Part shown: one piece after another, positions 1,639 to 63,638 of the stretch
Layout: each line of letters starts with the position of its first letter
How positions within the stretch are numbered: the first letter of the stretch is position 1
Source: an uncultured Armatimonadia bacterium
GTDB lineage: Bacteria > Armatimonadota > Zipacnadia > Zipacnadales > VGFC01
DNA: 64,000 nt
Reading direction: 5' to 3'
Assembly: GCA_964555935.1 (NCBI GenBank)
Contig: CAZKUN010000013.1
Coordinates: 4,539 to 68,538, forward strand
The notes under the pieces: model-generated
Seen by the model: only the letters and a program-made list of their open reading frames with translations
What the model was told of the DNA's origin: nothing
Database searches by the model: none
Position numbers and translations under genes: made by a program

Positions 1639-1647
1639 GCCGACGCG

Positions 1648-22515: not shown

Positions 22516-22550
22516 CCGCGTAGCGACGGGGCTCCCGCCCCGTCGAATCC
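22516..22550 (-). repeat. Copy of dispersed hairpin repeat (ggattcgacggggcgggagccccgtcgctacgcgg, reverse orientation)
   Basis: Matches the element at 27977..28010 over 35 bp with no mismatch. Confidence 0.8.
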
Positions 22551-22560
22551 TCCCGCGCCT

Positions 22561-23598
22561 CTAGGCGTAGAATCCGCTGTCGCGCTTGCAGGCCTGGGTC
22601 ACCCGGACGACCTCAACGGCCTCTGCCGGCTTGACGATCAGCGCTTTGCGCTCGCGCAGGTGGGCCCAGACATTGTCGTAGAAGTCGCCGATGTTGTCGC
22701 CGACCGACGGGACCTCTTCGCTCTGCCACGGGATGACGTCGTCGTTCCCGTAAGCGCGCCCCGGTGGCGGCTCCTCGACGACCTCGAGCTTCGCGAGCTT
22801 CTTGGGATCGAACGATTCGATCGTGCTCGTCCGCCCGTCCGAGACCAGCGTCCCCTCGGACCCTAGCACGGTCCACAAGGGCTCGGGGAACTTGCAGGCG
22901 CTTGAGACTTCCATGTCGAACACCCGCCCGTTCTCCGCGCGCAGCAGAACCTTCACGTGGTCCTCGACATCCCCGATTCCGCTGATCAGCCGCAGGTCGC
23001 AGAAGACGTCCTTCACGGTCGAGCCCAGCATCTGCAGCCCCGCGTCGATGTAGTGAGGGCAGGTGTTGTTGAGCACGCCGCCGTGGTGGCTGCGCATCGT
23101 CTGCCAATCGTTCCGGCGGCTGAACCCAAACGACCGCATCCGGATCTCAAAAACATCTCCGATCCGCTTCTCGCGGATGACCTTCAGGATGTGCTGGATG
23201 CAGGGGTTGTAGCGGTTATTGTGGTGAACGAGGAGCTTCTTCTTTGCCTTCTTCGCGGCGGCGACCATGCTGTTTGCCATCGAGACGCTATCGGCGATGG
23301 GTTTCTCGCAGATCGCGTGCCGTCCGCTGCGGAGCACATCCTTCGTGATCGGCCCGTGCGTGTCTGAGTAGCTCGCGACGACCACAACATCCGCGTCGGC
23401 GCCCTTCAGCAGCGCCTGGTGATCATCAAAGCACTCGCAGCCCAACTCCTCCGCGACCTCCGCGCGTCGCTCGGGCAGCCAGTCGGTGACGGCGGTGACT
23501 TGGTAGCGCTTGTCATCGCGCACGCGTTTGACGTGGATGTTGTAGCCCGAACGCCCGAGTCCGACGATACCCAACTTGATCGGCTTCTTGCTTGCCAT
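22561..23598 (-). CDS. Gfo/Idh/MocA-family oxidoreductase
   Basis: IKLGIVGLGRSG Rossmann motif, EKP motif, 345 aa. Confidence 0.85.
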   Translation of the reverse strand: MASKKPIKLGIVGLGRSGYNIHVKRVRDDKRYQVTAVTDWLPERRAEVAEELGCECFDDHQALLKGADADVVVVASYSDTHGPITKDVLRSGRHAICEKPIADSVSMANSMVAAAKKAKKKLLVHHNNRYNPCIQHILKVIREKRIGDVFEIRMRSFGFSRRNDWQTMRSHHGGVLNNTCPHYIDAGLQMLGSTVKDVFCDLRLISGIGDVEDHVKVLLRAENGRVFDMEVSSACKFPEPLWTVLGSEGTLVSDGRTSTIESFDPKKLAKLEVVEEPPPGRAYGNDDVIPWQSEEVPSVGDNIGDFYDNVWAHLRERKALIVKPAEAVEVVRVTQACKRDSGFYA

Positions 23599-23619
23599 TT
23601 GCGGCCTCCCGAAGGCGCG

Positions 23620-24360
23620 TTACGGCGAGTGTTCGTTCACATATTCCAGCGCGTCGCGTAGATACTGCAGCGTGTTCTCGCGGTCTTGCACTTCCATCTC
23701 GACCACGACATCCCCTGGGTAGCCATCCTCTGCCAGCCTCGCCAGCAACCCAGGCAGATCGATCTCACCCGTTCCGAACGGCACTGATTGCCGCCCGACT
23801 TGGTCCTTGATGTGCACCAGCTCGAATCGCCGGTCTAACGCCTCACAAGCCTCGCGCCAGTCAATGCCCACTGAGTGGAACTGCCCGACCTCGAGCGTGC
23901 ACTTCAGCCGCGCGTCATCGACGGTCGACAGGATTCTGTCGTAATCCTCAAGCGTCTCGATTGCCGAGCCCGCGTGGTTCTGCAGGACGGGGATCACGGG
24001 CAGGCCATCGATCTCGTCGAGCAGCGCCTTAACCGCCGGCGCGTCTCGATCCAGGTCCGTCGGCTTCACGAGCGCGGCTCGCACACCTAGCTCCGCGCCC
24101 AACCGGCACGTCTTCGCCGCGTTGGCGATTGATGTCTCGTGGTCCTCGGTAATTGGGGGAAGATGTATCGATGAGAAGTCGATGCCGTACTTGTCGGTGA
24201 AGCCGAGATACGCGTCCGGATCCGCATCAGCAGACAGCGCCGACTTGCACCAACTCGTGAACGCCTCAAAGCGCGTGTAGCCAATCTGCGCGTAGGCTGA
24301 GAGCACCTCGGCGAGGCTCATCTCGGGGTTGGAGCACGGGCTAACGGCGAACGAAAGCAT
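23620..24360 (-). CDS. Sugar phosphate isomerase/epimerase (xylose-isomerase-like TIM barrel, AP_endonuc_2 fold)
   Basis: Conserved acidic/His positions (HLPP, E...HIKD, VVEME) are typical of the family. The internal ATG at 24360 (MLSFAVSP) is preferred over 24432. Confidence 0.75.
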   Translation of the reverse strand: MLSFAVSPCSNPEMSLAEVLSAYAQIGYTRFEAFTSWCKSALSADADPDAYLGFTDKYGIDFSSIHLPPITEDHETSIANAAKTCRLGAELGVRAALVKPTDLDRDAPAVKALLDEIDGLPVIPVLQNHAGSAIETLEDYDRILSTVDDARLKCTLEVGQFHSVGIDWREACEALDRRFELVHIKDQVGRQSVPFGTGEIDLPGLLARLAEDGYPGDVVVEMEVQDRENTLQYLRDALEYVNEHSP

Positions 24361-24447
24361 GGCGTCTCTCCCGGCGTGGCGGTTCGCCCGGCGACGGTGA
24401 TTACCTGCACGCTGCCCCCGTGGCGCAGGCATTCTTGCCTGCGGCCG

Positions 24448-26028
24448 CTACTCCGGCTTGAACATCTGGAAATCGCCGCTGCCAACATCTAGGTCGGCAT
24501 ACTTATCAAGCCGGAACGTATGCCAGTAGCACGCCCAGCGCGCGTCGGCCTCCAACACGGCGCCCAGGCGGCGAATTATCGCTCGTTTCGCGTCCCCACG
24601 CCCGGGGTCGCTTGATAGGTCGCGATACGTCGCGTCCGCGAGATCGTACAGCTCGTCGCGGTCAGACGTGAGGTTGTAGGTGTACATGTACTTGGTCCCG
24701 TCGACCTCCGCGAAGGTCGAGACCGCCGGGTTCGGCGCGACATGCCAGCCGCACTCGAAGAGGATCGGGTCGCGCTCCGGAATCGCTTCGCCGCGGATGT
24801 GCGGCAGCAGTGATTCACCATCGAGACGCTCCGCCGGAGCGATGCCGGCGGCCTCGAACACTGTCGGCGCGATGTCGAGCAGCGAGACCATCTCGTCAAC
24901 CGTCCGTCCCGCGCCCCTCTCCCTGGGGAGCTTCACGCTCAGCGGCACCATCGCCACCTTTGGGTGGCCGTAGACACCCTTGTCGACCAACGCCCGCTCG
25001 CAGTTCATCTCGCCATGATCGCCCGTGAGGACGATGAGGGATTCATCGTAGATGCCGCGCTCGTCGAGCGCGTTCAGGAAGCGCCCTATCGCGGCGTCGA
25101 GCGCCTCGATCTGCACGAAGTTCATCAGCATGTACTGGCGCGCGGTCGCCTCGTCATACATCCCCCAGTTGCGCAGGTACACGTCATACACGCGCGGCCA
25201 GTCCTGCCCCTTGAGCGCCGCGTGGTAGCTCGCCGGCAACTGGATGTGTTCGGCCAGCTCCCGCGCCCGCTCGGCGTAGCACCCCGGCACCAGGAACGGC
25301 TGGTGTGGCGCGAAATAGTCGAGTTGGAGATACACGGGGTCGCCGGCTGATTGCCCGAGCGCGCTATCGAGCGTCTCAGTCGCCAGCCTCGAGAGGTACT
25401 GACTGTACGTTCCCTCCTCGGGGAACTCGCGTCCATCGGATTGCGCGATCCAGCCGCCGCAGTTGTTGCCGGGCGTCTGGCGATCCGGGCGCAGGCCCTT
25501 GATGGGATTAGGCCACGTCGGCGGGGTGACGCCCAAGTCGCGGAGGTACCGGTGGTAGCCGTCGTCATCAGCCAGCGGCGGCGCCCAACGGTTCCAGGGC
25601 GAGTCGCTCTCGCCGAACGCGTCCATGAACTTGGCGGCCCCGACGTGGCACTTGCCGACATGTTTCGTGGTGTAGCCGGTGGCTCTTAGGTACTCCGGGA
25701 AGATGGCATCCGAATCCCGCAGGCCCACTTCCCAGCCGTCGTGCGCGCGCTCCTCGTTCGCCGTGAGGTAGGGGTACCGCCCGGTGAGGTATCCGGCTCG
25801 CGATGGGCCGCACAGTGGCGAGCAACTGAACGCGTTGCTGAATCGCGTTCCGTCGGCCATGATCCGGTCGATGTTCGGCGTGCGCAGGTGCTCGCGAATT
25901 GGGGCGGCAGGATCGTAGCTCTCGCGTGGAATCATGTCCACGCTGATGAAGAACACGTTCGGCCCGGTTCGGCCATCATGCTCGAATGGATGGGCTCCGG
26001 TGCGCTCGTTCAGGTAGCGTTGTCTCAT
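24448..26028 (-). CDS. Cys-type (formylglycine) sulfatase, no signal peptide
   Basis: The canonical signature CGPSRAGYLTG is present. Alkaline-phosphatase-like core motifs are found (NVFFISVD, GKCHVG, LTGDHGE). The start is assigned to the internal ATG at 26028. Confidence 0.85.
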   Translation of the reverse strand: MRQRYLNERTGAHPFEHDGRTGPNVFFISVDMIPRESYDPAAPIREHLRTPNIDRIMADGTRFSNAFSCSPLCGPSRAGYLTGRYPYLTANEERAHDGWEVGLRDSDAIFPEYLRATGYTTKHVGKCHVGAAKFMDAFGESDSPWNRWAPPLADDDGYHRYLRDLGVTPPTWPNPIKGLRPDRQTPGNNCGGWIAQSDGREFPEEGTYSQYLSRLATETLDSALGQSAGDPVYLQLDYFAPHQPFLVPGCYAERARELAEHIQLPASYHAALKGQDWPRVYDVYLRNWGMYDEATARQYMLMNFVQIEALDAAIGRFLNALDERGIYDESLIVLTGDHGEMNCERALVDKGVYGHPKVAMVPLSVKLPRERGAGRTVDEMVSLLDIAPTVFEAAGIAPAERLDGESLLPHIRGEAIPERDPILFECGWHVAPNPAVSTFAEVDGTKYMYTYNLTSDRDELYDLADATYRDLSSDPGRGDAKRAIIRRLGAVLEADARWACYWHTFRLDKYADLDVGSGDFQMFKPE

Positions 26029-26247
26029 GTGGTGCTCCGCGCCGACATCGGGCTCCTGGGGGTGTCTACGTAGAAAGTTGGCGCAAATGGAGTGGCCGCG
26101 TCGACTATATGTGTAGGGAAGCCTGGCATTTGGGCTTTCGCCCAATTACGAAACTCCCCTTTACATAGGATCAATCACCCCCACCAAACCGAATCAACGA
26201 ACAGGGAACCCGCAGGTTGGGTCGCCCGCGCTACCGAACGTCCCGCC

Positions 26248-27954: not shown

Positions 27955-27976
27955 GCGGGAAGGGGAGCGTCGAGAG

Positions 27977-28025
27977 GATTCGACGGGGCGGGAGCCCCGT
28001 CGCTACGCGGCTACGGCGGGCAGCG
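27977..28025 (+). repeat. Copy of dispersed hairpin repeat (ggggcgggagcccc hairpin + tcgctacgcggctacggcgg tail)
   Basis: Identical over 35 bp to the inverted copy at 22516..22550. The tail resembles copies at 31546 and 62246. Confidence 0.8.
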
Positions 28026-28117
28026 TCGTGGAAACTCAGACGTCCAGTTCCCCTGCTAAAGGCGCTCTCACGGGGGTAGCGCAACGCGAGGCGTGGGAGG
28101 GGCATGAGGGGGGGTGA

Positions 28118-30718: not shown

Positions 30719-30728
30719 GGAGCGAAGC

Positions 30729-31523: not shown

Positions 31524-31545
31524 GGGTGGGTGGACGGCGACGGCC

Positions 31546-31585
31546 GACGGGCTGGAAGCCCGTCGCTACGCGACGGCGGACGGCG
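31546..31585 (+). repeat. Copy of dispersed hairpin repeat (gacgggctggaagcccgtcgctacgcgacggcggacggcgg)
   Basis: Same architecture as 27977..28025 (hairpin + tcgctacgcg tail). It lies in the GH16-GRE intergenic region, upstream of the reassigned GRE start. Confidence 0.75.
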
Positions 31586-31603
31586 GTGAAGGCGAGGGAA
31601 GAG

Positions 31604-33757: not shown

Positions 33758-33764
33758 GACGGCA

Positions 33765-33797
33765 GGGCGCGATAAATCGCGCCCCTACGATTGGCGG
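33765..33797 (+). repeat. Copy of dispersed hairpin repeat (gggcgcgat-aaa-tcgcgccc + ctacgattggcgg)
   Basis: Hairpin + CTAC..GGCGG tail. It overlaps the stop codon of the convergent sulfatase gene. Confidence 0.7.
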
Positions 33798-35041
33798 GGC
33801 GGGACGGCGAGTTCGGCGTCGAGGCCGGCGTCGGATTGCTGGGCCATCCAGTCATCGAGGAGGGCGCGGAGGGCGGTGAGCGCGTGGGTGGGGTCGTCGG
33901 CGAGGTTGGTTAGCTCCCACGGGTCGGCGCGAAGGTCGTAGAGTTCCTCAGCCGGGCGCCGTTGGTGCAGCGCCACGCGTTGCGCTGCAAAGTCGTCCGA
34001 CTTTGCCTTCTCCACCCATGATCGACAGAGCCGACCGTCCTCGTGTGGATTGCCCTCCGGGGGGTGGGTCATGATGTTCGTGAACTCGCCACCATGGTTG
34101 AGGTTGCGGATGTACTTGTGGGTCTCCGTGCGGACGGAACGGATGGGGAACACTGAGCCTGCGATGATCCCGTTCGTCGTGTGGGCGCCGTAGATGACGT
34201 CGCGGTGCGTGTCCGCATCGCCCAAGAGCACGGGCAAGATGCTCCGGCCGTCGATATCGGTCGGAGGATCGCCGCCCGCGATCTCGATGCACGTCGGCAC
34301 TACGTCGGCGAAGCTGACCATGGCGTCGGTGATGCTGCCCGGCGCGATTCTCCCGGGCCAGCGCGCGATGAAGGGCACGCGAAGTCCGGCCTCGTAGCAG
34401 GACCACTTGGCGAAGATCCCGTAACCGTGATCGCTCGCGTAGATGAAGAGCGTGTCGTCAGTCAGACCTCGCCGGTCGAGGGCTGAGAGCGCCTCGCCGA
34501 CCTCGCGGTCGCACTTCTCGATGTCGGTGTAGTAGTCGGCTTGCGTCTGGCGCATCTCGGGGGTGTCGACCTGGAACGGGTGGATCGGCACCTCGTCAGG
34601 GGAGAAGCCACCACCCTCGTGGGGCGTGTGAGGCTGGTTGGATGCGATGACGAGGCAGAACGGATCCCCCCCCGCATCATCGAGGAAACCAGGCACGTCA
34701 CGTTGGGCGATGTACTCGAAGGGGAACGCGGAGGCCGGCGCGATGTGGCGTTTTTCAGCGAGCGCGACGCGGTAATCGAGAGGTTGGAGGTAGTGAGGCA
34801 ATGACCGCGTGCCATCGAACACGCGGCCATGATTCATGTGGCAACCGTTTCGGTGGGGGAAGAGCCCGGTGTACATGCACGATCGGCTCGGCGCGCACAT
34901 GGCGGTCGGCGTGAAGGCGCGATTGAACATCATGCCATCGGATGCCAGAGAGTCGATGTTAGGCGTGCGGATGCTTTCGTTGCCGTAGCACCCGGTGTCA
35001 GATGTGCTGTGATCGTCCGACAGGAAGATGACGATGTTCAT
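33785..35041 (-). CDS. Cys-type (formylglycine) sulfatase, no signal peptide
   Basis: Signature MCAPSRSCMYTG (CxPSR), N-terminal IVIFLSDDH, and YASDHG motifs. Confidence 0.85.
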   Translation of the reverse strand: MNIVIFLSDDHSTSDTGCYGNESIRTPNIDSLASDGMMFNRAFTPTAMCAPSRSCMYTGLFPHRNGCHMNHGRVFDGTRSLPHYLQPLDYRVALAEKRHIAPASAFPFEYIAQRDVPGFLDDAGGDPFCLVIASNQPHTPHEGGGFSPDEVPIHPFQVDTPEMRQTQADYYTDIEKCDREVGEALSALDRRGLTDDTLFIYASDHGYGIFAKWSCYEAGLRVPFIARWPGRIAPGSITDAMVSFADVVPTCIEIAGGDPPTDIDGRSILPVLLGDADTHRDVIYGAHTTNGIIAGSVFPIRSVRTETHKYIRNLNHGGEFTNIMTHPPEGNPHEDGRLCRSWVEKAKSDDFAAQRVALHQRRPAEELYDLRADPWELTNLADDPTHALTALRALLDDWMAQQSDAGLDAELAVPPRQS

Positions 35042-35160
35042 GCGCGTCCTCTGAGGGGCAACTTCACGTGAGGCCGAGGCTGTACCTTCCGGAAAGGGCG
35101 AGGAAGCGGCGAACGAAGGGGGGAACTTGCCGGGAGAGAAGTGATCCTAAGGAGCTTGAG

Positions 35161-37538: not shown

Positions 37539-37611
37539 CCCGGAGTCCTGGGAATGACCGGAAACCACGAAGACACAGAGGGCGCTAAGGACGGCGAGAA
37601 ATGAGGGCAAC

Positions 37612-39728: not shown

Positions 39729-39949
39729 GGTGGTCCTCTCAGTGTGATGGTGGCATTATGCCACTGCACACATATTCACTGGCGATTAATCGCTTTTACA
39801 GGGTTAATTAGTGAAATATATGTTGACATGGCCAGTCGCTGCGAGTAGTATTATACAAGTAGCGCATATTCTGTCAATAAATATTACTAAGTTGGATCTG
39901 TGAGCGTCAGGACGGGCGGACAGGTCCACGGGCCAGAGCGAGGGCGCGC
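39729..39949. promoter_or_regulatory. AT-rich intergenic island with sigma70-like promoter (TTGACA 39823..39828, 17-bp spacer, TAGTAT 39846..39851) and 12-bp perfect palindrome GCGATTAATCGC (39782..39793)
   Basis: Read directly. GC is far lower than the surrounding ~67% GC context. The island separates divergent genes 39045..39728(-) and 39950..(+). Confidence 0.55.
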
Positions 39950-41953
39950 GTGCGCATCCTGGATTTCATCACACACCCACCATTCCAGAGCGAGCTGTGC
40001 AAGACCGGGCATGAGTTCGTGCTCGCGGCGAGCGAGTGCTGGGACCACTGGGACGTCAGCCTGAGGCCGCTGCCTGGCAACGCGTCAGTTGTCTCCGAGA
40101 TCGACCCCGAAGGACTCGACTTGGCGATCGTCGCGACGCGCGAGCAATACGTGCGGGCGGCGCGCCTGGACATTCCCGTCATCTTATTGAGCCACACAAT
40201 CATGCACCCATGGGATCGGGAGTTCTTCGCCGCTCTGCCCGATCATGTGGAGATGGTCTACGTAAGCGACCACAAGCGCGCGACGTTCGGGGACCTCGGC
40301 CAGAGGGGCCGGACCATCCGCCTGGCGGCGGACGCTGACGAGGATTTCACCGGCTACTCCGGCGCGGACGCCCGGATTCTCAACGTGACAAACCGGTTCT
40401 CGCAGCAGGGGGACCGAGGCTATGACCTGTATCGGCGCCTGACCGAGGGGTTGCCGGTGCAGGTCATCGGGCATCATAACGACCCGATACCGGGGGCGCG
40501 CGCCGCGACCGATCTCGACGACTTGCGGCAGCTGTATCGCACGAATCGCGCGTACCTGAACACGGACCCCCAGGGGCGATTGCACCTGGCAACGCTCGAG
40601 GCGATGGCCACGGGGATGCCGCTGGTCTCGCCCCCGATCGCGGAGTTGATGCCATACGTTGACGACGGAGTCAACGCGTTCGTTAGCACCGACGAGGGTG
40701 CGCTCCGCGACGCCCTGGAGGAGCTTCTCGAGGACGAGGAGCTAGCGCAGCGTGTCGGCGAGGCGGGACGCGCGATCGTCCGGACCCACTTCGGGATCGA
40801 TCGCTTCCTGCGCGAATGGTCCGAGGCCATTGGCGACGTCGCGGATCGACGCGGCAAGAGCGCCGGCCGCGGATCGCCGCTTCGCCCGCGCCGCGCGGGG
40901 GACGATTCGGGGCTGCGCGTGGCGATCAATGTCGGCCTGCTCGGAACGATCAAGACCGGCATCGGCCAGCACGCCGCGAACCTGGTGGAGGGTCTCGCCG
41001 CGACGGACGGGCCGAACTCGTATCATCTGATCGTGGGCACGTCATCCGTGGACAAGCTGCCCACCGGCCACAACCTGCACCCGCTGCTCGTCCGCTCAGG
41101 CGACGAGATGTGGGAAGAGACAGGACTGCCGTCGGTGCTGGAGGAATGCCGGGCGGATGTATATCACAGCCCCGCATTTGGTATCCCGATCGTGAAACCA
41201 TGCCCGTGTGTGGCGACGGTTCACGACTGCATCCCGAAGCTATTCCCCGAGCACGCGCCCCCGTTTCTCAGGCGTTTCTTCGACGATTGGGCGCCGACTT
41301 GGATGAAACTCGCCGACCACCTGATCGCAGTGTCAGAGCACACCAAGCACGACATCGCGCATCTGTATGGGGTGTCCGAGGACAAGATCACGGTCATCTA
41401 TCAGGCGAGCCCCAGCCGCCGGCGAGTTGATGATGAAGAAGCGATCTCCGACGTGAAGCGGCGGCTGGGCATTCCCGGGCCATACGTTCTCTATGTCGGG
41501 CGCATCGAGCTGCGGAAGAACATCGCAGGCATGATCGATGCGTTCCGGCTATTGCGAGCACGGGGGGACTTTGATGGGACCCTCGTGCTCGCCGGGCCGC
41601 GGGACCCCGAGCCTCACGATCCTGAAGGGGTGTTGCCGCCGGAGGGCGAGTACGGCGACATCATCGTGCCGGGCTTCGTCGCGGAGGACGACCTCTCGGG
41701 CTTGTATTCGGGGGCGCAGGCGTTCTGCTTCCCGTCCTTCTACGAGGGTTTCGGGCTGCCCGTCCTCGAGGCGCTGGCCTGCGGGGTACCGGTCGTGACA
41801 TCCAACGTGTCATCGCTTCCTGAGGTCGGCGGCGACGCGGCCATCTACGTGAACCCACACGACATCGAAGACATGGCGGACGGCATGAGCCGTGCCATTT
41901 CCGACACCCAGCTCCGGGGGGGAGCTGGTCCGGCGCGGGCTCGCGCAAGCTAG
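39950..41953 (+). CDS. Two-module GT4-family glycosyltransferase, C-terminus apparently truncated by a frameshift at a G7 run (would extend to 42020 in the other frame)
   Basis: The N-terminal module has a partial Glycos_transf_1-like domain. The C-terminal module is a full GT4 with EX7E-like EGFGLPVLEALACGVPVV. After ggggggg (41916..41922), the alternative frame encodes a canonical GT4 tail (ELVRRGLAQASRFTAEDAARKTIEVYEKAARS). Confidence 0.75.
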   Translation: MRILDFITHPPFQSELCKTGHEFVLAASECWDHWDVSLRPLPGNASVVSEIDPEGLDLAIVATREQYVRAARLDIPVILLSHTIMHPWDREFFAALPDHVEMVYVSDHKRATFGDLGQRGRTIRLAADADEDFTGYSGADARILNVTNRFSQQGDRGYDLYRRLTEGLPVQVIGHHNDPIPGARAATDLDDLRQLYRTNRAYLNTDPQGRLHLATLEAMATGMPLVSPPIAELMPYVDDGVNAFVSTDEGALRDALEELLEDEELAQRVGEAGRAIVRTHFGIDRFLREWSEAIGDVADRRGKSAGRGSPLRPRRAGDDSGLRVAINVGLLGTIKTGIGQHAANLVEGLAATDGPNSYHLIVGTSSVDKLPTGHNLHPLLVRSGDEMWEETGLPSVLEECRADVYHSPAFGIPIVKPCPCVATVHDCIPKLFPEHAPPFLRRFFDDWAPTWMKLADHLIAVSEHTKHDIAHLYGVSEDKITVIYQASPSRRRVDDEEAISDVKRRLGIPGPYVLYVGRIELRKNIAGMIDAFRLLRARGDFDGTLVLAGPRDPEPHDPEGVLPPEGEYGDIIVPGFVAEDDLSGLYSGAQAFCFPSFYEGFGLPVLEALACGVPVVTSNVSSLPEVGGDAAIYVNPHDIEDMADGMSRAISDTQLRGGAGPARARAS

Positions 41954-42059
41954 TCGGTTCACGGCCGAGGACGCGGCGCGCAAGACGATTGAGGTCTACG
42001 AAAAGGCGGCGCGGAGCTGACTCCGGGCCGACGAGAAGATCGACTGGGGCAATAAGCCA

Positions 42060-43223
42060 ATGCGGGTAGCCATTGACTGTCGGAGCGTGTTCGCCGGGTG
42101 CGGCGGAATCGGGCGCTACACTACGCAGCTCGTGAAGGCCATCGCGAGGATCGATCGCGATACCGATTACTACCTCGTCCGCACCAAGGCCAAGAACGAA
42201 GGGCCGATTGTCGAGCAGGACAATGTCTACGAGATCGTCGTCTCGGCAGGCATGCTTGACGAGAACTTCGAGCAGCTCCACCTCCCGCAACTGCTGGAAA
42301 GCTACGAGATCGATCTGTACCACAACACGACATTCTCGCTCCCGATCGTCCAGCCATGCGTGACGGTCACAACGATTCATGACGTCGTCTTCCACTTCCG
42401 GCCAGACCTGGTCAGGCCGGGGCTGAACGAGTACCTCGCCAAGTGGTCGCGCGTCGCGGCGGAGACGGCAACGCGCATCATCACGGTGTCTCAGTATTCC
42501 AAGGCCGCTATCTGCGACGCGTACGGCGTCGATCCGGCCGGCGTGTCGGTGATCCATGAGGCGGCGGACGCCGAGCGTTTCAGGCCGCGGTACGGTGGCG
42601 CGCTGGAGATCGAGTTCCGCAAGTGCTACGACATCAGCGGCCCATTTGTGCTGTACGTCGGCTCGCTCGAACCGAAGAAGAACATCGATCGCCTGTTGGC
42701 GGCGTTCAAGCGCGCGCGGCGCGATTCACGCTTACCGCACCGGCTCGTGCTGGCCGGAGGAGGGGGCGGCATGGATTACGACGTGCAAGCGGCGATCGAG
42801 GAACTCGGGCTGGAGCAACTTGTGACGGTAACGGGCTACTTGCCTGACAGGTACCTGCCGGTGGCGTACAACGCCGCTGATCTGTTCGCGTACCTGTCGC
42901 TCTATGAGGGATTTGGCTTGCCACCGCTTGAGGCGATGGCGTGCGGAACGCCGACGCTGGTGACGGACTGCACGTCGCTACCGGAGGTGGTGGGGACGGG
43001 CGCTGTTAGGGTGTCGCCGACCGACCCGGATGAGATCGCCGCCGCGCTGGCGTGGATGCTTACCGACCGGGCGCTGCAGGAGAAACTGAGGGAGCGTGGC
43101 CCGGAACGCGCCGCTCAATTCTCGTGGCAGCGCGCGGCGCTAGAGACGCTCGAGGTCTACCGGATGTGTCAGTCGCGCCAGTGGCTGCCCGCCGAGGCCA
43201 TGCTTGAGGAGGCGCACCAGTGA
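42060..43223 (+). CDS. GT4-family glycosyltransferase
   Basis: MRVAIDCR N-terminus, LYEGFGLPPLEAMACGTPTLV (EX7E), 387 aa. Confidence 0.85.
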   Translation: MRVAIDCRSVFAGCGGIGRYTTQLVKAIARIDRDTDYYLVRTKAKNEGPIVEQDNVYEIVVSAGMLDENFEQLHLPQLLESYEIDLYHNTTFSLPIVQPCVTVTTIHDVVFHFRPDLVRPGLNEYLAKWSRVAAETATRIITVSQYSKAAICDAYGVDPAGVSVIHEAADAERFRPRYGGALEIEFRKCYDISGPFVLYVGSLEPKKNIDRLLAAFKRARRDSRLPHRLVLAGGGGGMDYDVQAAIEELGLEQLVTVTGYLPDRYLPVAYNAADLFAYLSLYEGFGLPPLEAMACGTPTLVTDCTSLPEVVGTGAVRVSPTDPDEIAAALAWMLTDRALQEKLRERGPERAAQFSWQRAALETLEVYRMCQSRQWLPAEAMLEEAHQ

Positions 43224-44422
43224 GAGTTATGCACATCGCATCCGAGTACCCGCCGATCCAGGTCTTCGGCCTTGGTCGAGCGGTGCGCGACCTGGCGGTC
43301 GCTTCGGCCGCCGCGGGGCACGAGGTCCACGTCGTTACGAACAGCATCGGTGGTCGGGACAAGAGCGCCGTCATGGACGGCGTGAACGTACATCGGATCT
43401 CGTTTCCGCCGCCACCAAAGCCGCCCGACGGCGTGACCGCCGTGATGCAGTTTGACGTGCTTGCGGTACAGGCCGCCATCGAGGCCGTGAAGCGCCATGG
43501 TCAGCCGGATGTCATCCACGTGCATGACTGGCTGACGGCGCTGCCGGGACGGGTACTGAAGTGGACGTGCCCCGACGCGAAGCTCGTTGTGACGATTCAC
43601 GATACGGCGCATGGGAAGCACTTCGGAGAACTCGATCCTTCGCAACAGTCCACGGCTGACCTGGAACGTTGGATCGGCGAACACGCCGACGAAGTTGTCT
43701 GCTGCAGCGAGCACGTGCTCCGAGAGCTGACCGACACGTACGGTGTCGATCCAAGCAAGATCACGATCATCCCGTGTGGCGTCGACAGGTCGTCGTTTGA
43801 AGTGGATGGCGACCTTGACGCCCTGCGCGAGACCTTCGCCGAGTCAGACGAGCGCATCGTGCTATATGTGGGCCGACTGGATAAGGAGAAGGGCATCCAG
43901 TACCTCGTCGAGGCGGTGAGTCGCGTCATGACGGTTCACCCCAAGACCAAACTCGTCATCGCGGGCAAGGGCGTGCTCCAAGAAGCCATCCAGAAGCACG
44001 CGCACAACGTGGGGGTCGGCGACCGAGTGCTATTCGTCGGGTACGTAACGGGGAGCGTGCTATCGGGGCTGTACCGGCGTGCCGATGTGCTCGTAGTGCC
44101 CAGCACGTACGAGCCGTTCGGTCTCGTGGCGCTTGAGGGGATGGTCTGTGGCGCGCCGCTCGTGGCGTCGACGGCGGGTGGCTTGGGCGATATTGTCGAG
44201 CACGAGCAGACGGGGCTGTCGGTGCCGCCCGCGGATGTCGGAGCGCTGGCGGAGGCCATCACGCGCCTGCTGTCAGATACATCGCTAGCCGAGAGGCTGT
44301 CAGACGCCGGCGTCCGGCGCGCGGAGGAGCAGTACAACTGGACGCGGATCGCCCTCATGCACGAGCCGGTCTACGGCGTGACGGCGAAGGCTCCAGTCGC
44401 CGCCTTGCAGGAGCAAGTCTAG
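43220..44422 (+). CDS. GT4-family glycosyltransferase (paralogue of 46383..47555)
   Basis: MRVMHIASEYPP...GLGR N-terminus, STYEPFGLVALEGMVCGAPLVAS. There is an ATGA overlap with the upstream gene. Confidence 0.85.
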   Translation: MRVMHIASEYPPIQVFGLGRAVRDLAVASAAAGHEVHVVTNSIGGRDKSAVMDGVNVHRISFPPPPKPPDGVTAVMQFDVLAVQAAIEAVKRHGQPDVIHVHDWLTALPGRVLKWTCPDAKLVVTIHDTAHGKHFGELDPSQQSTADLERWIGEHADEVVCCSEHVLRELTDTYGVDPSKITIIPCGVDRSSFEVDGDLDALRETFAESDERIVLYVGRLDKEKGIQYLVEAVSRVMTVHPKTKLVIAGKGVLQEAIQKHAHNVGVGDRVLFVGYVTGSVLSGLYRRADVLVVPSTYEPFGLVALEGMVCGAPLVASTAGGLGDIVEHEQTGLSVPPADVGALAEAITRLLSDTSLAERLSDAGVRRAEEQYNWTRIALMHEPVYGVTAKAPVAALQEQV

Positions 44423-45222
44423 TGGACATCTACCACAGCGGGCGCGAGATCAGCCCGGATTACGCGAGCGTCGTGATCCCCGTCTACAACCAGCTCGAGC
44501 ACACCCGCGTGTGTTTCGACAGTCTCAGCGAGCACACGCGCTACCCGTGGCGTCTGATCGTCGTGGACAACGGGAGCAGCGACGGCACGGGCGAGTACCT
44601 CGCCGAGCGCGCGGCTGAGTGCGACCATCTGACGGTTATCACGAACGAGGAAAACGCCGGCTTTACGCTCGCCGTGAATCAAGGGATGGAGGCCGCGGAT
44701 GGCCGGCACGTGGTGCTTCTGAACAACGACACGACGGTCACGCCGGGCTGGCTGATGGGCCTCGTGATGCTCGCGGAGAGCGATGATCGGATTGGCCTGG
44801 TCGGGCCCAAGATCCTGCATCCGGAGACAGGCCAGATCCGGACCATTGGGGGACTCGTCTTCCATATGGGCGGGAAGGTCAGTCCGCCACCGGGGCAGGA
44901 CCAGGACGCCGCCGATCCTCGGTTTGCGGAGCCCTTCGAGTGTCAGTACGTTGAGGGCTCTTGCATGCTGATCAAGCGCGCCGTCATCGATGAGATTGGC
45001 GTTCTCGACGAGGTCTTCGCGCCGGCGTATTACGAGGACACAGACTACTGCTTCCGCGCGCGGGAAGCGGGTTTTCGGATCGTGTACTCGCCCTACTCAG
45101 AGATCTACCACCACTCGACAGTCACCGCCCAGGCCGTCAACGCGGAAGACCCGTCGTATGCGGCAGCAGCACGCCGGAACGACATGATCTTCAAGGCGCG
45201 CTGGGCGCACAGGTTCTGGTGA
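44422..45222 (+). CDS. GT2-family glycosyltransferase
   Basis: SVVIPVYNQ, VVDNGSSDGT and DxD (NNDT) motifs, 266 aa. Confidence 0.8.
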   Translation: MDIYHSGREISPDYASVVIPVYNQLEHTRVCFDSLSEHTRYPWRLIVVDNGSSDGTGEYLAERAAECDHLTVITNEENAGFTLAVNQGMEAADGRHVVLLNNDTTVTPGWLMGLVMLAESDDRIGLVGPKILHPETGQIRTIGGLVFHMGGKVSPPPGQDQDAADPRFAEPFECQYVEGSCMLIKRAVIDEIGVLDEVFAPAYYEDTDYCFRAREAGFRIVYSPYSEIYHHSTVTAQAVNAEDPSYAAAARRNDMIFKARWAHRFW

Positions 45223-46361
45223 GGCGGAGAATGAGCAAGAGGAAACGCCGGACGATTGCCGTTGACTGCCGCATCTTGAGCGCGCCGCCGGGTGGGAGCG
45301 CGTTCTACACGCGGCACGTGCTGAAGGCATTGGCGAAGCTGGGCGTGCGCGACGACTACGCGCTGATCCAAGGGCCGGGCGCTCAGAACGGACAGACGAT
45401 CCGCTCGCCGAGATTCCGCGACGTGATGGTCGATGACGCGAGCCTCTGCGACGAACGCTGGGAGCAGTGGCAGATGCCGAGCCAGCTCACCGAACTCGGC
45501 GCCGACCTGCTATTGGCTCCCACGATGGTGCTTCCGGCGCTACGCAGTTGTCCCTGCGTTCAGGTCATATACGATCTTGGGTTCGAGGTCCACGCGAGCT
45601 TCTACACTCCGGAGTTGAGGCGCTACTTGCGCAAGTGGGTCCGGCTTAGCGCGCGCAACGCGGACCACATCGTCACCCTCAGCGAGCACGCGCGAAGCGA
45701 GATCACGAGCATCTACTGCGTTCCTGATGAGAAGATCACGACCATCCCCGGCGCGCCCGCCGCGCATTTCGCCCCCGCGAGACGCGATGACATCGAGGCC
45801 ACGTTGCGGCGCCACCGGATCAGCCGCCCGTACGTTCTTAGCGTCGCAAGCGCCGAGCGCAACAAGAATCTGCCGGCGCTCATCGAGGCGTTCTCAACGG
45901 CTTGCTTGGGCGCGAAGGGCGGCTGGCAACTCGTGCTGACCGGCCGGGCCGGCGGGGGCGAGCGCGAAATCAGAGAAGCGCTCGGGCGGAATGGGATTGA
46001 GGACAGAGTCGTCATGACCGGCTTCGTCCCGGACGAGGATCTGCCGGCCCTGTACTCGGGGTCAGAGATCTTCGCATTCCCGTCGCTGTATGAGGGCTTT
46101 GGTCTTCCGCCGGTGGAGGCGTTGGCGTGTGGGACGGCAGTGCTCTGCTCCAACGCCGCTTCGCTACCCGAGGTCGTGGGTGACGCGGGCTTGCTTGCCG
46201 ACCCGACGCCTGAATCGTTCGCCGACGGGCTGGAAACGCTGATGGGCGACGAGAAGCTGAGGTCGGCCCTTCGCGTCAAAGGCCTCAGCCGCGCGCGCGA
46301 GTTCTCGTGGGAGGCGTCGGCCAAGCTGCTGCTGGGTGTGATCGAGACGACGGTTGGATGA
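45219..46361 (+). CDS. GT4-family glycosyltransferase
   Basis: IAVDCR N-terminus, LYEGFGLPPVEALACGTAVLCS. The start may be the ATG at 45231. Confidence 0.85.
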   Translation: MRRRMSKRKRRTIAVDCRILSAPPGGSAFYTRHVLKALAKLGVRDDYALIQGPGAQNGQTIRSPRFRDVMVDDASLCDERWEQWQMPSQLTELGADLLLAPTMVLPALRSCPCVQVIYDLGFEVHASFYTPELRRYLRKWVRLSARNADHIVTLSEHARSEITSIYCVPDEKITTIPGAPAAHFAPARRDDIEATLRRHRISRPYVLSVASAERNKNLPALIEAFSTACLGAKGGWQLVLTGRAGGGEREIREALGRNGIEDRVVMTGFVPDEDLPALYSGSEIFAFPSLYEGFGLPPVEALACGTAVLCSNAASLPEVVGDAGLLADPTPESFADGLETLMGDEKLRSALRVKGLSRAREFSWEASAKLLLGVIETTVG

Positions 46362-46382
46362 ACCCGAGGAGGACCCGATAAC

Positions 46383-47555
46383 GTGAAGGTGCTTACGCTC
46401 GCCACCGAGTTTCCCCCTGCCCGTGGATATGGTTTGGGGAGGTACATCGCCGAACACAGCGCCGCCCTCGCCGCCGCCGGCGTGGAGTCGCACGTCGCGT
46501 GCAACAACCACGACGGGGTCAGCGATAGCTACGACCGCGAGGGCGCGCGCGTGCATAACGCGCCGTTCCCTATCCCGGTCCAAGGTCACACTTGGATCAA
46601 CGAGGCGATGCAGGGGAACTCGCTCCTGGTCGCCCGCGGCGCGAGAATCGCGGATGAGCACGGGCCCTTTGACGTCATTCAGGCCCATGACTGGCTGGCG
46701 GCGAGCGCCGCGCGGTCTCTGCAGGAGATGCTGGGGATCCCTCTCGTGTTGACCATGCACGACACGCAGATTGGGAAGGCGCTTGGCGAACTCACCGACG
46801 ACCAGCGCTACATCGCCGAGGTAGAGGCGTGGATTTGCGGTCATGCCGACGCCGTGGTCGCCAACTCGTTCTTCATGGGCCGCGAGCTGAGCCAGGCCTA
46901 CAAGGTCCCGGACGAGAAGCTCGACGTGATCCACTGCGGCGTCAACCCGAAGTCGTTCGAGACGGACGCGGATCCCAAGCTGTTCAGGACCCTTTTCTGC
47001 GAGCCCGGCGAGCGGCTCGTGGGGTTCGTCGGCCGGCTGGCGCAGGTCAAGGGGCCGCACGTTCTGCTGGAGGCCGTGCCGAAGGTGCTGCGCGCTTGCC
47101 CAAACACGAAGTTCGTGATAGCCGGCGAGGGCGCTCTTCGCGACGGTCTCGAGCGCCACGCGGCAGGCCTCGACGTGCAGTCGCGCGTGCAGTTCACGGG
47201 GTACCTCTCCGGCCAGGTGCTATCGACGTTCTATCGGGCGGCCGATGTGATGGCGGCGCCGAGCCTCTACGAGCCGTTCGGCATGGTCGCGCTTGAGGCA
47301 TCCGTCTGCGGGACGCCCGTGGTCGCGGGCGATACCGGCGGGCTGTCTGAGATCGTCGAGGACGGGGAGACGGGCGTCAAGGTCCCGCCCAACGACCCGG
47401 ACGCACTGGCTTCGGCTATCGTGAAACTCCTCGTCGACGTGCGAAGGATCGAGCGGATGGGCATCGCGGCCAATCGTCACGCGCGATCGAACTTCTCCTG
47501 GCACGCGGTCGCGCGCAAGCAGATCGAGGTCTACGAGAAAGTGCTGGCGGCGTGA
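46383..47555 (+). CDS. GT4-family glycosyltransferase (paralogue of 43220..44422)
   Basis: MKVLTLATEFPP...GYGLGR N-terminus, SLYEPFGMVALEASVCGTPVVAG. Confidence 0.85.
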   Translation: MKVLTLATEFPPARGYGLGRYIAEHSAALAAAGVESHVACNNHDGVSDSYDREGARVHNAPFPIPVQGHTWINEAMQGNSLLVARGARIADEHGPFDVIQAHDWLAASAARSLQEMLGIPLVLTMHDTQIGKALGELTDDQRYIAEVEAWICGHADAVVANSFFMGRELSQAYKVPDEKLDVIHCGVNPKSFETDADPKLFRTLFCEPGERLVGFVGRLAQVKGPHVLLEAVPKVLRACPNTKFVIAGEGALRDGLERHAAGLDVQSRVQFTGYLSGQVLSTFYRAADVMAAPSLYEPFGMVALEASVCGTPVVAGDTGGLSEIVEDGETGVKVPPNDPDALASAIVKLLVDVRRIERMGIAANRHARSNFSWHAVARKQIEVYEKVLAA

Positions 47556-47574
47556 GGCGTGGGTGCGGAGCCGT

Positions 47575-48303: not shown

Positions 48304-48415
48304 TGGTCGGCACCTCCGTGGTGGGTGAGTGCTTCGCCCATCATCCGGGCGGACACCTTCTCCGTTGCGGTCCGAGCCGGCGGGTGTTAGTGTATGGGTG
48401 AGGAGGCGTTTGCCG

Positions 48416-51454: not shown

Positions 51455-51480
51455 GTGGTCGCCCTCCCGGGCGAACGGCG

Positions 51481-51543
51481 TCGGATCAGGAGATCCGACC
51501 TACGAACGGCGTCGGGGTCGAAACCCCTCCTACAACGGCGGCG
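51481..51543 (+). repeat. Tandem pair of dispersed hairpin repeats: ggatc-agga-gatcc + cctacgaacggcg, then ggggtcgaaacccc + tcctacaacggcggcg
   Basis: Read directly. It lies in the divergent intergenic region between 50195..51454(-) and 51640..(+). Confidence 0.75.
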
Positions 51544-51639
51544 TTTCTCCGCAGCGGTTGCGATGCCCTTGGGGAAAGGTGCGGCGGTGACATACAGCCA
51601 ACAGCCAGAGACCGAACGTTCGTATTGGGGAGGCCTCGG

Positions 51640-59272: not shown

Positions 59273-59342
59273 GGGTGGTCTCCTTGCGTCGGCGGGTGCC
59301 TTCGGCATTGACAGGCGAGGAAACTCGCCGAGTTTCCGCGAC

Positions 59343-62201
59343 CTACGACGGCGAGAGCGTGTAGCTCTGGCCTGGCTTGGTTGCGAACTCGATGACGTTC
59401 TTGTCGACGGATTCGGCGGCGAGTTTTGGGCGGGCATCGAGGCGAAGGGCCGAATGCGCGCGGACGCGGCACGTGTTGCCAATCGAGGAGTGGACAATGG
59501 CGTGGGTGAGCTTGCCGTCGGCCCACTCGATATCGACCTCGAAGCCGCCGCGAGCGCGGAGCCCGGTCACGTGTCCGGTCGGCCAGGCTGCGGGGAGCGC
59601 GGGCAGCAGGTCGATCTCGCCATCGTGGCTCTGAATGAGCATCTCGGCGATGGCCGCGCAACCGCCGAAGTTGCCATCGATCTGGAAGGGCGGGTGGTTG
59701 TCGAACATGTTCGGCAGCGTTGACTTGGCGAGCAGCGCCTGGAGGTTCTCGTGGCACGTCTCGCCATCGCGTAAGCGCGCGAAGAAGTTGGTGATCCAAG
59801 CCCGGCTCCAGCCGGTGTGGCCGCCGCCGTGGGCGAGGCGGTGATCGAGGGTGGCGCGCGCGGCGTCGGCGAGTTCGGGCGTGCTGAAGACTGTGATCCG
59901 CCGACCCGGGTGCAGGCCGTAGAGGTGGGAGATGTGGCGATGGCCCGGTTCGGGTTCCTCGAACTCCTCGGGCCACTCCTGGAGGCGGCCGTCGCTGCCG
60001 ATCTTCATCGGCGTCAGGCGCGCGCGGGCGGCCTTGACCTCCATGCGGAAGTCGGCGTCGGTGTTCAACGCCTCGCTCGCCTCGATGCAGTTCTGGAAGA
60101 CGTCATCGATGATCTGATGGTCCATCGTCGCGCCCATGACGACATTCGCCACCTGCCCGTCGGGCGTGCGGAACGAGTTCTCTGGCGAACTCGACGGCCC
60201 GCTGACGAGCATCCCCGTGCGCGGGTCCTCAACGAGGTAATCGAGGAAGAAGAGGGCGGCTTCCTTGATGATCGGATAGCCCGTCTCCGCCAGGAACTCG
60301 CGGTCTCCGCTGTACTCGTAGTGCTCCCAGAGGTGACGCGTGCACCAGGCCGCGCTGAAGGGCCAGAGGCCATACCCCGTAGCGCCGATGGAGCTGGCGT
60401 ACCACCAGGCATCAGTGGTGTGATGCGCCACGAACCCGCGGCAGCCGTAGATCTTCCGGGCGGCCTCGCGACCACGTGGGAGGAGGTTCTCAGTGAGCTG
60501 GATGAAGGGCTCGTGGCACTCGGTGAGGTTGGCTACCTCGGCGGGCCAGTAGTTCATCTGGATGTTGATGTTGATGTGGTAATCAGCGTTCCAGGGCGGG
60601 CTCATCCCGGCTTCCCACAGCCCCTGGAGATTGGCGGGCATGCATCCGGGTCGCGAGGAGCTGATCAGCAGGTAGCGGCCGAACTGGAAGTACTGCTCGA
60701 GGAGTTGGGTATCGACAGCGCCTTGCTTCACGGCGGCGAGACGTTCGTCCGTGGGGAGGTTGGTGGCTTCGGTAGCGCCGAGGTCGAGATCGACCCGGCG
60801 GAAGAGCCGCTGGTGCTCCTTGACATGCCGCTTGCGGAGTTGGGCGTAGCCCTTGGCGGATGCGTCGGCCATGCGCTGGATGCACAGCTCGCGCGGGTCA
60901 TCGCCGAAGTAGCTTGTCGCGGCCACGATGAGGATTGTGGCCGAATCGGCGCCATCGATCCGCAGACCATCGTCCGCGGGGCTGACCGTGCCGCCATTGG
61001 TTCTCACCTTCAGCCGGGCTTCGTATCGGACGCCCTTCCCGTCGCCCGCGTGGCCGTACATGATGAGTCCGCCAGATCCATCGGACTCGACGGTCACGTC
61101 CCGCGAGCGAGAGAGGCCGACCGTGCATGATGCTGGACCGGAGAGGCGCGCCACTAAGACGTCATCAGCGGCGCTGGAGAAGACCTCGCGCGAGAGCCTC
61201 TCGCCATCCGCGCTGTAGGCAGTGGCCGCGATGGCGGAATCGAGGTCGAGATCGCGGCGGTAGTCGACGACGGTCCGGGGTCGGTCGAACGTCAGCGTGA
61301 GGTCGCCGAGGGCCTGGTACGTGTGGAGGCCGGGATCGATTCGCGTGCCCATGAGCTTCCCTTGGGCCAGGCGCTGACCCTCGACATAGTTGCCCTCGAA
61401 GAGCAACCGGCGGACCTCGTCGAGGTTACCGAGCGCCTCCGGGTTCTCGCGCTGGAAGGGCTCGCCGGTCCAGAGGCTGTCTTCGTTGAGTTGGATGAGT
61501 TCCCGATCAACACCGCCGAAGACCATCGCCCCGAGACGCCCGTTGCCAACCGGCAGAGCCTCGATCCACTCGTTGGCCGGCCGACGGTACCAGAGCGTGA
61601 GATCGCCCTCTGGCGGCGCGGCCTCGCCCGCGTGCTGGGTCACCTTGCCGCCGAGGTCGCTTGCTGCCGTGCATTGCTCAGCCAAAGCCTTGCCCTCCGG
61701 GCTGTCGGGGTCCGCGGGCCAGTCGGCCCACGTCAGGTCGTCGCCGGCGCGGAGTTGCCAGGAACCGCTCAGGCTCATAGATCCCTTGGCGCAGCCGAGG
61801 GAAAGCTCCGGGCCGGTCATCCCGCCGTTTCCGCCGTTGTCAAAGACGCGGACGGCGATGAGGTTGTAGTCGCCCCAGCGGACGGCACCCGGCGGAACTT
61901 GGCATTCGCGACGGGTCTGCCACGCGGTGCGGGGCTCGGGCGGGAGCTGGCCGGTGGCGCCGATCTTCTCACCGTTGAAGAACGACTCGTCGCAATCGTC
62001 GATGGCGCCGAGTTTCAGCGTCAGAGTCTCGCCGCGCCACTCCTTAGGGACTTCCACGAAGCATCGGTACCATGCGAAGCCGTCGTGCTGGCCCAGTCCG
62101 ACGCGGCCCCAGTCGGCGGGCACGGGGACGGTGTCCCAGGAGTTCTGGGCAAGGCTGACCGACGCGATGAGAATGGCGAGAGAGGTCGTGATGAGGCGCA
62201 T
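59343..62201 (-). CDS. Glycoside hydrolase family 95 (alpha-L-fucosidase/alpha-L-galactosidase type) with extra N-terminal ~170-aa sugar-binding domain
   Basis: Signal peptide present. GH95 N-terminal signature [28 protein letters not shown]...IQLNEDSLW. (alpha/alpha)6 catalytic region with NADYHININ. Confidence 0.85.
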
Positions 62202-62245
62202 GTTCCCTGAGGTCGTGTAGGTGGTGGACAGTCCCGGCCGGCGAC

Positions 62246-62330
62246 GGCGGGGCGTGATGAATCACGCCCCTACAACGGCGGACGACGCGGGTCAGGAGAC
62301 CCGCAGGCACGGACGACTACGGCGACTACA
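62246..62330 (+). repeat. Tandem pair of dispersed hairpin repeats: ggggcgtga-tgaa-tcacgcccc + tacaacggcgg, then gggtc-agga-gaccc + gcaggcacggacgactacggcgactac
   Basis: Read directly. Its composition parallels 51481..51543 and 14120..14160. Confidence 0.75.
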
Positions 62331-63437: not shown

Positions 63438-63638
63438 CGGTTTCCTCCGAAATGGGCCCGCGCGTAGGGCCGCGTTGGTGACGGCTCGGTGTTCGTCGGA
63501 GGGCGTGCGGCGGCCTGCCTGGCGACGACAACGGAACGAAAGCGGGAAGACTCGAAGATTCGAAGAACGGCAGGGCTAGGGGAGCGGCAAGGCCGAACCA
63601 CCAAGAGCGCCAAGGCCACCAAGGATGGGCACGGGCCA

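Follow-up and report, generated by a model that had tools for sequence, protein, structure and literature searches.

A 64,000-nucleotide stretch of contig CAZKUN010000013.1 from an uncultured Armatimonadia bacterium, referred to here as the window, contains a dispersed family of short GC-rich hairpins, each followed by a recurring tail that most often begins with CTAC. These hairpins are of a known kind, the repetitive extragenic palindromic (REP) elements tied to REP-associated tyrosine transposases (RAYTs); what was not reported before in the literature searched is their strand polarity. Nearly all of the single copies lie on the locally G-rich strand, which is the unusual feature here. We assign a probability of roughly 0.85 to the reading that the units are GTAG-tagged, non-autonomous REPs acted on by RAYTs encoded elsewhere in the same genome. 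The original prediction, made from the letters of the window, had described a family resembling REPs and the bacterial interspersed mosaic elements (BIMEs) of E. coli, with RAYT-associated repeats among the likely roles. The REP/RAYT part of that description was supported by the present analysis, and the BIME part was not.

The window has a GC content of 65% and holds ∼14 REP units. Seven perfect GC hairpins carried CTAC directly at the foot, where 0.4 were expected by chance, and all seven were intergenic, as predicted, although the non-coding share of the window is only ∼4%. Scanning the window for perfect hairpins that run into CTAC gave essentially no comparable match within its genes. Chance levels were estimated from 30 dinucleotide-preserving shuffles of the window: the window has six hairpins with stems of 7 bp or more that run into CTAC, whereas the shuffles averaged 0.37 and never exceeded 3. 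The overall number of hairpins was ordinary (92 in the window versus 84 ± 13.5 in the shuffles); thus, the signal resides in the combination of hairpin and tail and in the intergenic position. Rfam 15 gave zero matches at gathering score anywhere in the window.

All of the copies listed in the original prediction were recovered, their positions agreeing with those given to within a few bases. The hairpin-CTAC units have perfect stems of 5 to 9 bp and loops of 3 to 4 nt, and single hairpins fold as DNA at −13 to −14 kcal/mol. Two class 2 singlets, A (unit 22516-22550, hairpin 22524-22545, minus strand; GGATT CGACGGGGC-GGGA-GCCCCGTCG CTACGCGG) and B (unit 27976-28010, hairpin 27981-28002, plus strand; the same as A over 35 nt, then CTACGGCGG), are identical across 35 to 36 nt, in agreement with the 35 bp claimed for the copies at 22.5 kb and 27.98 kb. 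Unit A sits between two minus-strand genes and has a DNA fold of −13.8 kcal/mol. The remaining listed singlets are all on the plus strand. Unit C (unit 31545-31573, hairpin 31545-31565; CGACGGGCT-GGA-AGCCCGTCG CTACGCGA) belongs to class 1, which is the most common and is represented in the sample by 51 exact cores, and D (unit 33765-33797, hairpin 33765-33784; GGGCGCGA-TAAA-TCGCGCCC CTACGATTGGCGG) belongs to class 10. Units E (class 5; unit 51480-51511, hairpin 51480-51499; GTCGGATC-AGGA-GATCCGAC CTACGAACGGCG) and F (class 4; unit 51506-51541, hairpin 51514-51527; ACGGCGTC GGGGT-CGAA-ACCCC TCCTACAACGGCGG) form a direct pair of unlike classes, with E first and F second; in F, CTAC is offset 2 nt from the stem. 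The "tandem pair" that had been placed at 62246-62330 does consist of two units, but they are not of the same kind: G (unit 62249-62281, hairpin 62249-62270; GGGGCGTGA-TGAA-TCACGCCCC TACAACGGCGG) is a class 10 variant with a CTAC tail, and H (62287-62317; GCGGGTC-AGGA-GACCCGC, then AGGCACGGACGAC) is a class 12 unit that follows G in direct orientation. From copy to copy the stems vary, and what recurs is the tail (CTAC, R, a variable stretch and CGGCGG) together with a 5′ box, (A/G)ACGGC.

Copies were abundant beyond the window. A search pattern that covers copies A, B, and C, CGACGGGN{5,10}CCCGTCGCTACGCG, gave 88 matches at 76 loci in metagenome contigs, with up to five loci on a single contig; ∼65 of the loci came from one assembly and had a GC content of 64 to 65%. 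Two subtypes made up the matches, CGACGGGCTGGAAGCCCGTCGCTACGCG (51 exact cores) and CGACGGGGC(G/A)GGAGCCCCGTCGCTACGCG (∼20 copies). Similarity among the 88 copies ended 1 to 5 nt beyond the 28- to 36-nt unit, the flanks were unrelated, and the loci shared hardly any 40-mers once four duplicate contigs were removed. The units are a real dispersed family of independent short elements, and the earlier claim of a dispersed repeat family was borne out by this wide scan of one class pattern in contigs of the same population.

Among reference genomes (596 Gb), the same pattern gave 10 isolated matches, nine of them chance-like and the tenth in a related contig (L028), and no genome carried several copies; the organism is therefore not represented in that collection. 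L028 is a 1.7-kb (1,686-bp) contig of an Armatimonadia metagenome-assembled genome and carries class 1-like and class 12-like units. From ∼960 to 1686 it consists of ∼700 bp of non-coding DNA dense with related hairpins and with short runs of (N)ACGGC/GCCGTA hexamers, such as GCCGTAGCCGTAGCCGTAGCCGTT, which suggests that the ACGGC box itself is open to tandem amplification. A shorter pattern without the final GCG found 10 unrelated terminator-like hairpins in viral contigs and serves as a background estimate only. Exact-protein look-ups matched window genes elsewhere at 99 to 100% identity on short metagenome contigs only; these were near-identical strain contigs, and no empty sites or insertion polymorphisms were found among them.

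To describe the whole repertoire, repeated 16-mers were assembled into classes in a non-redundant sample of 607 kb, comprising the window and 63 loci. At least 14 classes were obtained, with units of 25 to 36 nt, each made up of a stem of 7 to 9 bp, a loop of ∼4 nt and a short tail; across individual units, the stems ranged from 5 to 9 bp (up to 10) and the loops from 3 to 4 nt. The commonest tail, CTACG, reads as a GTAG head on the opposite strand and is found in classes 1, 2, 3, 5, 7, and 10, in which CTAC stands directly at the foot of the stem. Classes 4 and 11 have the tails TCCTACAG/TCTTACAGGG, with CTAC 2 nt away in class 4. Other tails were GGTCCAG, GGTCCAAGA, and GCTCCAGTGA (classes 13, 9, and 8, respectively), AGGCACGG (class 12), and CCACGGG (class 14). 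When all 4-mers following stems of at least 7 bp were counted, CTAC ranked first with 130 occurrences, and the next had 36. Among 11 multi-copy CTAC hairpins, every one of seven stem positions showed two to four Watson-Crick pair types. Pairing is conserved and the stem sequence is not, while the tail stays fixed. CsrA-type GGA loops were considered and dropped, as GGA occurred in only about half of the loops.

Class 6 (GGAAACTC...GAGTTTCC) is often nested in the loop of another class or replaces part of its arm. Such nesting was seen in the window at 59310-59354 and 28026-28055 and at loci L053, L060, L066, L075, L085, and others, for example in the form GACAGGCG-T-(GGAAACTC..GAGTTTCC)-CTA-CGCCTGTC-CTAC. 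In many cases the class 6 loop can pair with the 5′ flank (CGTCGT/ACGACG), giving two mutually exclusive hairpins.

Next, the genomic location of the units was determined for 184 units of 11 classes in the 607 kb; class 6 was left out, its pattern being symmetric. Of these, 151 were intergenic, 20 lay within 150 nt of a longest open reading frame (ORF) start, and 13 lay deep within ORF calls, which are crude and cover 82% of the DNA. Thus, ∼93% of the units (171/184) were extragenic, in line with the intergenic bias that had been put forward for checking. Short (20 to 40 bp) GC-rich imperfect palindromes that can form a stem-loop and are dispersed in many copies, extragenic and, in most classes, tagged with GT(A/G)G correspond to REPs. 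Units were distributed over co-directional, convergent, and divergent gene pairs in the proportions 102:28:20, similar to the background of 251:55:57. Between co-directional genes, 53 units were in the sense and 49 in the antisense orientation.

These counts bear on the possibility that the hairpins act mainly at the RNA level, as U-less intrinsic terminators or as stabilisers of 3′ ends, with transcript selection maintaining them and repeat families arising as a by-product; mRNA-stabilising, terminator-like structures were among the likely roles named in the original prediction. Several properties fit such a role: the hairpins are stable and GC rich, they are intergenic with many just past stop codons, and action of this type has been reported for E. 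coli REPs. However, a conserved asymmetric tail should give a strand preference, whereas sense and antisense units were nearly equal in number, and the stems are followed by CTACG... rather than by the T run of an intrinsic terminator. Units between divergent genes were near background (20/150 units versus 57/363 gene pairs). The occurrence of identical 28- to 36-nt units with unrelated flanks indicates copying and not convergent selection, and no Rfam family matched in the window. A main role at the transcript level is therefore very unlikely.

The arrangement of neighboring units (those within 120 nt of each other) depended on class. All 10 same-class neighbor pairs were inverted, with tags outward and spacers of 24 to 41 nt, while 38 of 39 different-class pairs were direct, with typical spacers of 8 to 17 nt. 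In total, there were 164 singlets and 10 doublets. One class 1 doublet was found twice, in L043 and in L070 (loci that share ∼86 bp), with an unchanged spacer but different flanks. The doublets thus have the form of REPINs (inverted same-class REP pairs with a short spacer that fold into one hairpin and are copied as a unit). The regular spacing and alternating orientation of E. coli BIMEs were not found: the pairs that had been likened to tandemly duplicated BIMEs are direct repeats of unlike units. Two regions of the window noted previously as "related arms," at 5161 and 14083, are indeed related to the family; each (5161-5253 and 14070-14156) is in fact a doublet of two inverted units of one class, and the doublets represent two other classes. 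The first, 5161-5253 (class 4/11; ...GGGGC-TAAA-GCCCC TCTTACAGGGATT and its reverse complement), folds into one stem of ∼35 bp (−50.4 kcal/mol; z = −13.5), and the second, 14077-14148 (class 12), has tails outward, a 24-nt spacer, and a fold of −37 kcal/mol. Both are REPIN-like.

The orientation of each unit was then compared with local GC skew, measured over ±3 kb, with the strand carrying the hairpin-then-tail form taken as the scored strand. The locally G-rich strand carried 149 of the 164 singlets (Fisher P = 2e-28), and where |skew| exceeded 0.05, 121 of 125 singlets followed the skew. The result was maintained when skew was computed from coding sequence only (141/161), from minus-strand genes (94/101) or plus-strand genes (55/61), and when each locus was given one vote (49/57). 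Polarity was present in each class tested separately and amounted to 90/98 for the classes outside the search hook. Most discordant units were second members of doublets, for which the opposite orientation is obligatory, or were located at sites of near-zero skew. Gene-strand bias reached merely 54%, so the polarity is not an effect of transcription. Singlet orientation follows local GC skew, not transcription.

Polarity of this strength could also be expected of chromosome-architecture signals analogous to FtsK orienting polar sequences (KOPS) or Chi, that is, of selected leading-strand sites read directionally by a protein that tracks along DNA. A fraction of ∼90 to 97% of singlets on the G-rich strand, far above the 54% gene-strand bias, and the G-rich ACGGC and CGGCGG-type boxes common to all classes are compatible with this explanation. 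Against it, the same polarity occurs in 11 classes with different stems and at least four tails, for which a shared insertion mechanism is simpler; RAYT genes are found next to REPs; and symmetric same-class doublets without polarity also exist. We give this explanation slightly less credence still than a transcript-level role. The remaining alternative, that the matches are fragments of a small number of longer duplications (the outcome named in advance as fatal to the original prediction) or are chance GC hairpins, can draw on the identity of A with B and on the stretch common to L043 and L070, but it is refuted by the abrupt loss of similarity around 88 independent copies, by the near absence of common 40-mers, and by the shuffles (0.37 versus 6 observed).

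Within the window itself, the strand of the singlets changes at ∼26 kb: the two to the left lie on the minus strand, and every one to the right lies on the plus strand. Cumulative GC skew changes at the same place, staying flat between position 1 and ∼26 kb and rising steadily thereafter, and only to the right of 26 kb do genes on either strand have a clearly positive top-strand skew. The switch may mark a rearrangement breakpoint or a landmark of replication. As a candidate replication origin, the ∼26-kb position has against it that skew in the left part is near zero rather than negative.

RAYT genes were sought in the window and the sampled loci by tblastn with an approximate E. coli RayT sequence, which served only as a probe, and by a motif scan. 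Two RAYT-type genes were found, both adjoining REPs on contigs of the same population, as the prediction of a RAYT association required. The first (L058, 8618-9211, minus strand) scored 99.1 bits on the NCBIfam model NF047646, "REP-associated tyrosine transposase" (cut-off, 80), and also matched Pfam Y1_Tnp. Its single match among solved structures was E. coli TnpArep (4ER8; E = 2.9e-9), in an alignment that spans the HUH (PNHVH) and tyrosine (YIHQNP) motifs. This gene is flanked on both sides by class 13 REPs at 8568-8600 (plus strand), 9275-9305 (minus strand), and 9343-9375 (plus strand). The inverted arrangement is that described for RAYT genes (PMC2817692, PMC6006769), so that L058 presents an HUH/Y1 gene flanked by inverted REPs, probably in the same genome as the window. 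The second gene (L043, 2408-2920, minus strand) scored 74.3 bits on NF047646, just under the cut-off, and has the motifs MPDHVH and YIYDNP; its 3′ end lies inside a tags-outward inverted doublet of class 1, the commonest CTAC class. The window and the RAYT-bearing contigs probably belong to one genome. Weak tblastn matches in L053 and L102 were rejected, as they are not genes. Both RAYT genes lie in stretches of near-zero GC skew (0.006 for L058 and 0.022 for L043 over the whole locus), unlike most REP-bearing loci, for which the mean |skew| is 0.071.

These observations suggest a working model. In the most likely mechanism, RAYTs of the HUH/Y1 type would recognize the REPs as single-stranded DNA hairpins together with their tags and would cut and rejoin them, and RAYTs would be what mobilizes these particular classes. 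Insertion or survival on one strand at the replication fork may have produced both the skew polarity and the co-oriented mixed-class arrays, with new units tending to land beside the tail or the 5′ box (ACGGC) of resident units; one-strand insertion combined with landing beside resident REPs would by itself yield arrays that are co-oriented and of mixed class. Effects on neighboring transcripts would be by-products. This second part of the model, that singlets of every class inserted or survived on one strand relative to the fork and landed beside resident REPs, is offered tentatively, and we rate its chances at a little below even.

Several findings weigh against the REP/RAYT reading or against its replication-linked extension. 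With respect to RAYTs, no RAYT gene was detected within the window by the tblastn probe and motif scan. The REPs that flank the clear RAYT in L058 have the tail GGTCCAG and not CTAC, while the RAYT that adjoins class 1, in L043, is below the cut-off and has REPs on one side only. The link between the window and the RAYT contigs consists of shared REP classes, GC content, and co-occurrence in assemblies, not a closed genome. Five classes (8, 9, 12, 13, and 14) are without a GTAG/CTAC tag and have tails with CCAG, GCAC, or CCAC instead, and no transposition event was observed. With respect to replication, copies of the searched class occur on both strands in four of nine multi-locus contigs, and at least one of these (the contig of L075 and L099) also shows both signs of skew; GC skew may therefore be an imperfect guide to the direction of replication here. 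Finally, with hairpin-CTAC on the G-rich strand, the GTAG-hairpin form, which is the form bound by E. coli TnpArep, is necessarily on the C-rich strand, the opposite of what the simplest model of insertion into the lagging-strand template predicts. This C-rich position suggests either that another strand is the active one or that copies are preferentially excised when they are exposed on the lagging-strand template.

The REPs described here share features with three known REP systems. E. coli REPs are GC-rich imperfect palindromes with an unpaired GTAG at the foot, extragenic and present in many copies (PMC3333891, PMC3479197, PMC8266576). The window's family resembles the E. coli REP/TnpA-REP system (RayT/YafM; 4ER8) in its tagged extragenic palindromes and in a single-domain HUH/Y1 transposase flanked by REPs. 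In contrast, E. coli REPs occur mostly as BIMEs, in which REP and inverted REP alternate, whereas here unlike neighbors are co-oriented and singlets dominate; the stem sequences are also unrelated. The high-GC genome of Stenotrophomonas maltophilia has many REP classes (SMAG), and GT(A/G)G heads all of them (Nunvar 2010, PMC2817692; Di Nocera 2013, PMC3733652), and in that species compensatory changes keep the palindromes, several RAYT genes each have their own class, and mixed-class dimers occur (PMC2817692, PMC3733652). Many classes in a high-GC genome, compensated palindromes, several RAYT genes, and mixed-class pairs are all found here too; what differs is that tandem mixed-class arrays are the rule and that some tails are CCAG, GCAC, CCAC, or TTAC. 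The REPIN-RAYT system of Pseudomonas fluorescens (Bertels and Rainey 2011, PMC3116915) has in common with the present one inverted same-class doublets that form one long hairpin, RAYT genes and, here, a doublet with the same spacer at two loci. Unlike in P. fluorescens, doublets are a minority and strand-polarised singlets dominate, which would be impossible for symmetric REPINs.

The strand polarity itself can be compared with that of IS200/IS605 elements. Copies of IS608 and ISDra2 are oriented with replication, the lagging-strand template providing single-stranded DNA (PMC3333891, PMC3971601, PMC6006769). A replication-linked, strand-specific process is established for IS200/IS605, and for BIMEs it is no more than a proposal (PMC3333891, PMC3971601). 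The IS200/IS605 elements likewise use a related Y1 transposase on single-stranded hairpins, and the skew polarity observed here is the same type of footprint. Unlike the REPs, they are autonomous, 0.7 to 2 kb long, and encode their own transposase, whereas the units here are 25 to 36 nt and the transposase genes are separate. No report of a REP orientation bias relative to replication was found in the literature searched, which is not proof that there is none.

REPs are among the most abundant bacterial non-coding repeats, and the way they spread is still considered poorly understood (PMC8266576). Inverted pairs predominate in the well-studied genomes, an arrangement that masks any strand preference. 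Since the units here are mostly single and 90 to 97% of them lie with local GC skew, replication-coupled, strand-specific REP mobility becomes directly testable. If true, insertion or survival on one strand would constitute genome-scale evidence for replication-coupled dissemination of REPs, like that of IS200/IS605 transposition. For annotation, REPs account for most of the strong intergenic hairpins in the window, and caution is advisable before such hairpins are called terminators or regulatory RNAs. The results also extend REP-RAYT systems to an uncultured glycan-degrading bacterium; the sole related reference contig is labelled Armatimonadia, a group not mentioned in the REP surveys examined.

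At least eight copies had been counted in the window originally, and to these several missed units were added. A class 14 singlet lies at 24420-24443 on the minus strand (CGCAGGCA-AGAA-TGCCTGCG CCAC). A hybrid or nested class 3/6 unit at 59310-59354 (plus strand) consists of a class 3 left arm, GACAGGCG, a class 6 hairpin, GGAAACTC-GCC-GAGTTTCC, and GCGAC CTACGACGGCGA. A degenerate class 6 unit is found at 28026-28055 (plus strand; CGTCGT GGAAACTC AGACGTCC AGTTCCCC TGC), and a low-copy hairpin class is represented at 1647-1670 (plus strand; GCAACGAGGC-AGGC-GCCTCGTTGC), with two related copies elsewhere that show a compensatory stem change.

REPs abut or overlap the ends of two minus-strand genes and supply their TAG stop codons from the REP tags. 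The CTA of unit D (33785-33787) is the TAG stop of a sulfatase gene (33785-35041, minus strand), and the CTA of the 59310-59354 unit (59343-59345) is the TAG stop of a GH95 gene (59343-62201, minus strand). The genes of the window are devoted mainly to glycan degradation and include sulfatases, GH95, GH16, and GH141-like proteins, beta-helix lyases, and GFO/IDH/MocA oxidoreductases.

Three further intergenic features were noted. At 63597-63616 (region 63438-63638), a 20-nt indel distinguishes otherwise identical strain contigs, GTGGCCCGTGCCCATCCTTG being absent from L009 and L011. It is bounded by GTGGCC direct repeats, in a spacer that also has short CCAAGG- and GAAGA-type repeats; a REP event was rejected as its origin in favor of slippage between the GTGGCC repeats. 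A 221-bp AT-rich region at 39729-39949, with TTGACA and TATTAT-like hexamers, lies upstream of a co-directional gene run (39950-47555); it contains no REP, and no other spacer of the window is strongly AT rich. Finally, a hairpin with a 13-bp stem at 1689-1718 (AAGGGGCAGCGCC-TTCA-GGCGCTGCCCCTT), situated between convergent genes and bordered by A-rich and T-rich shoulders, is unique, with no second copy within the 607 kb; a genuine bidirectional terminator is a likelier identity for it than a REP.

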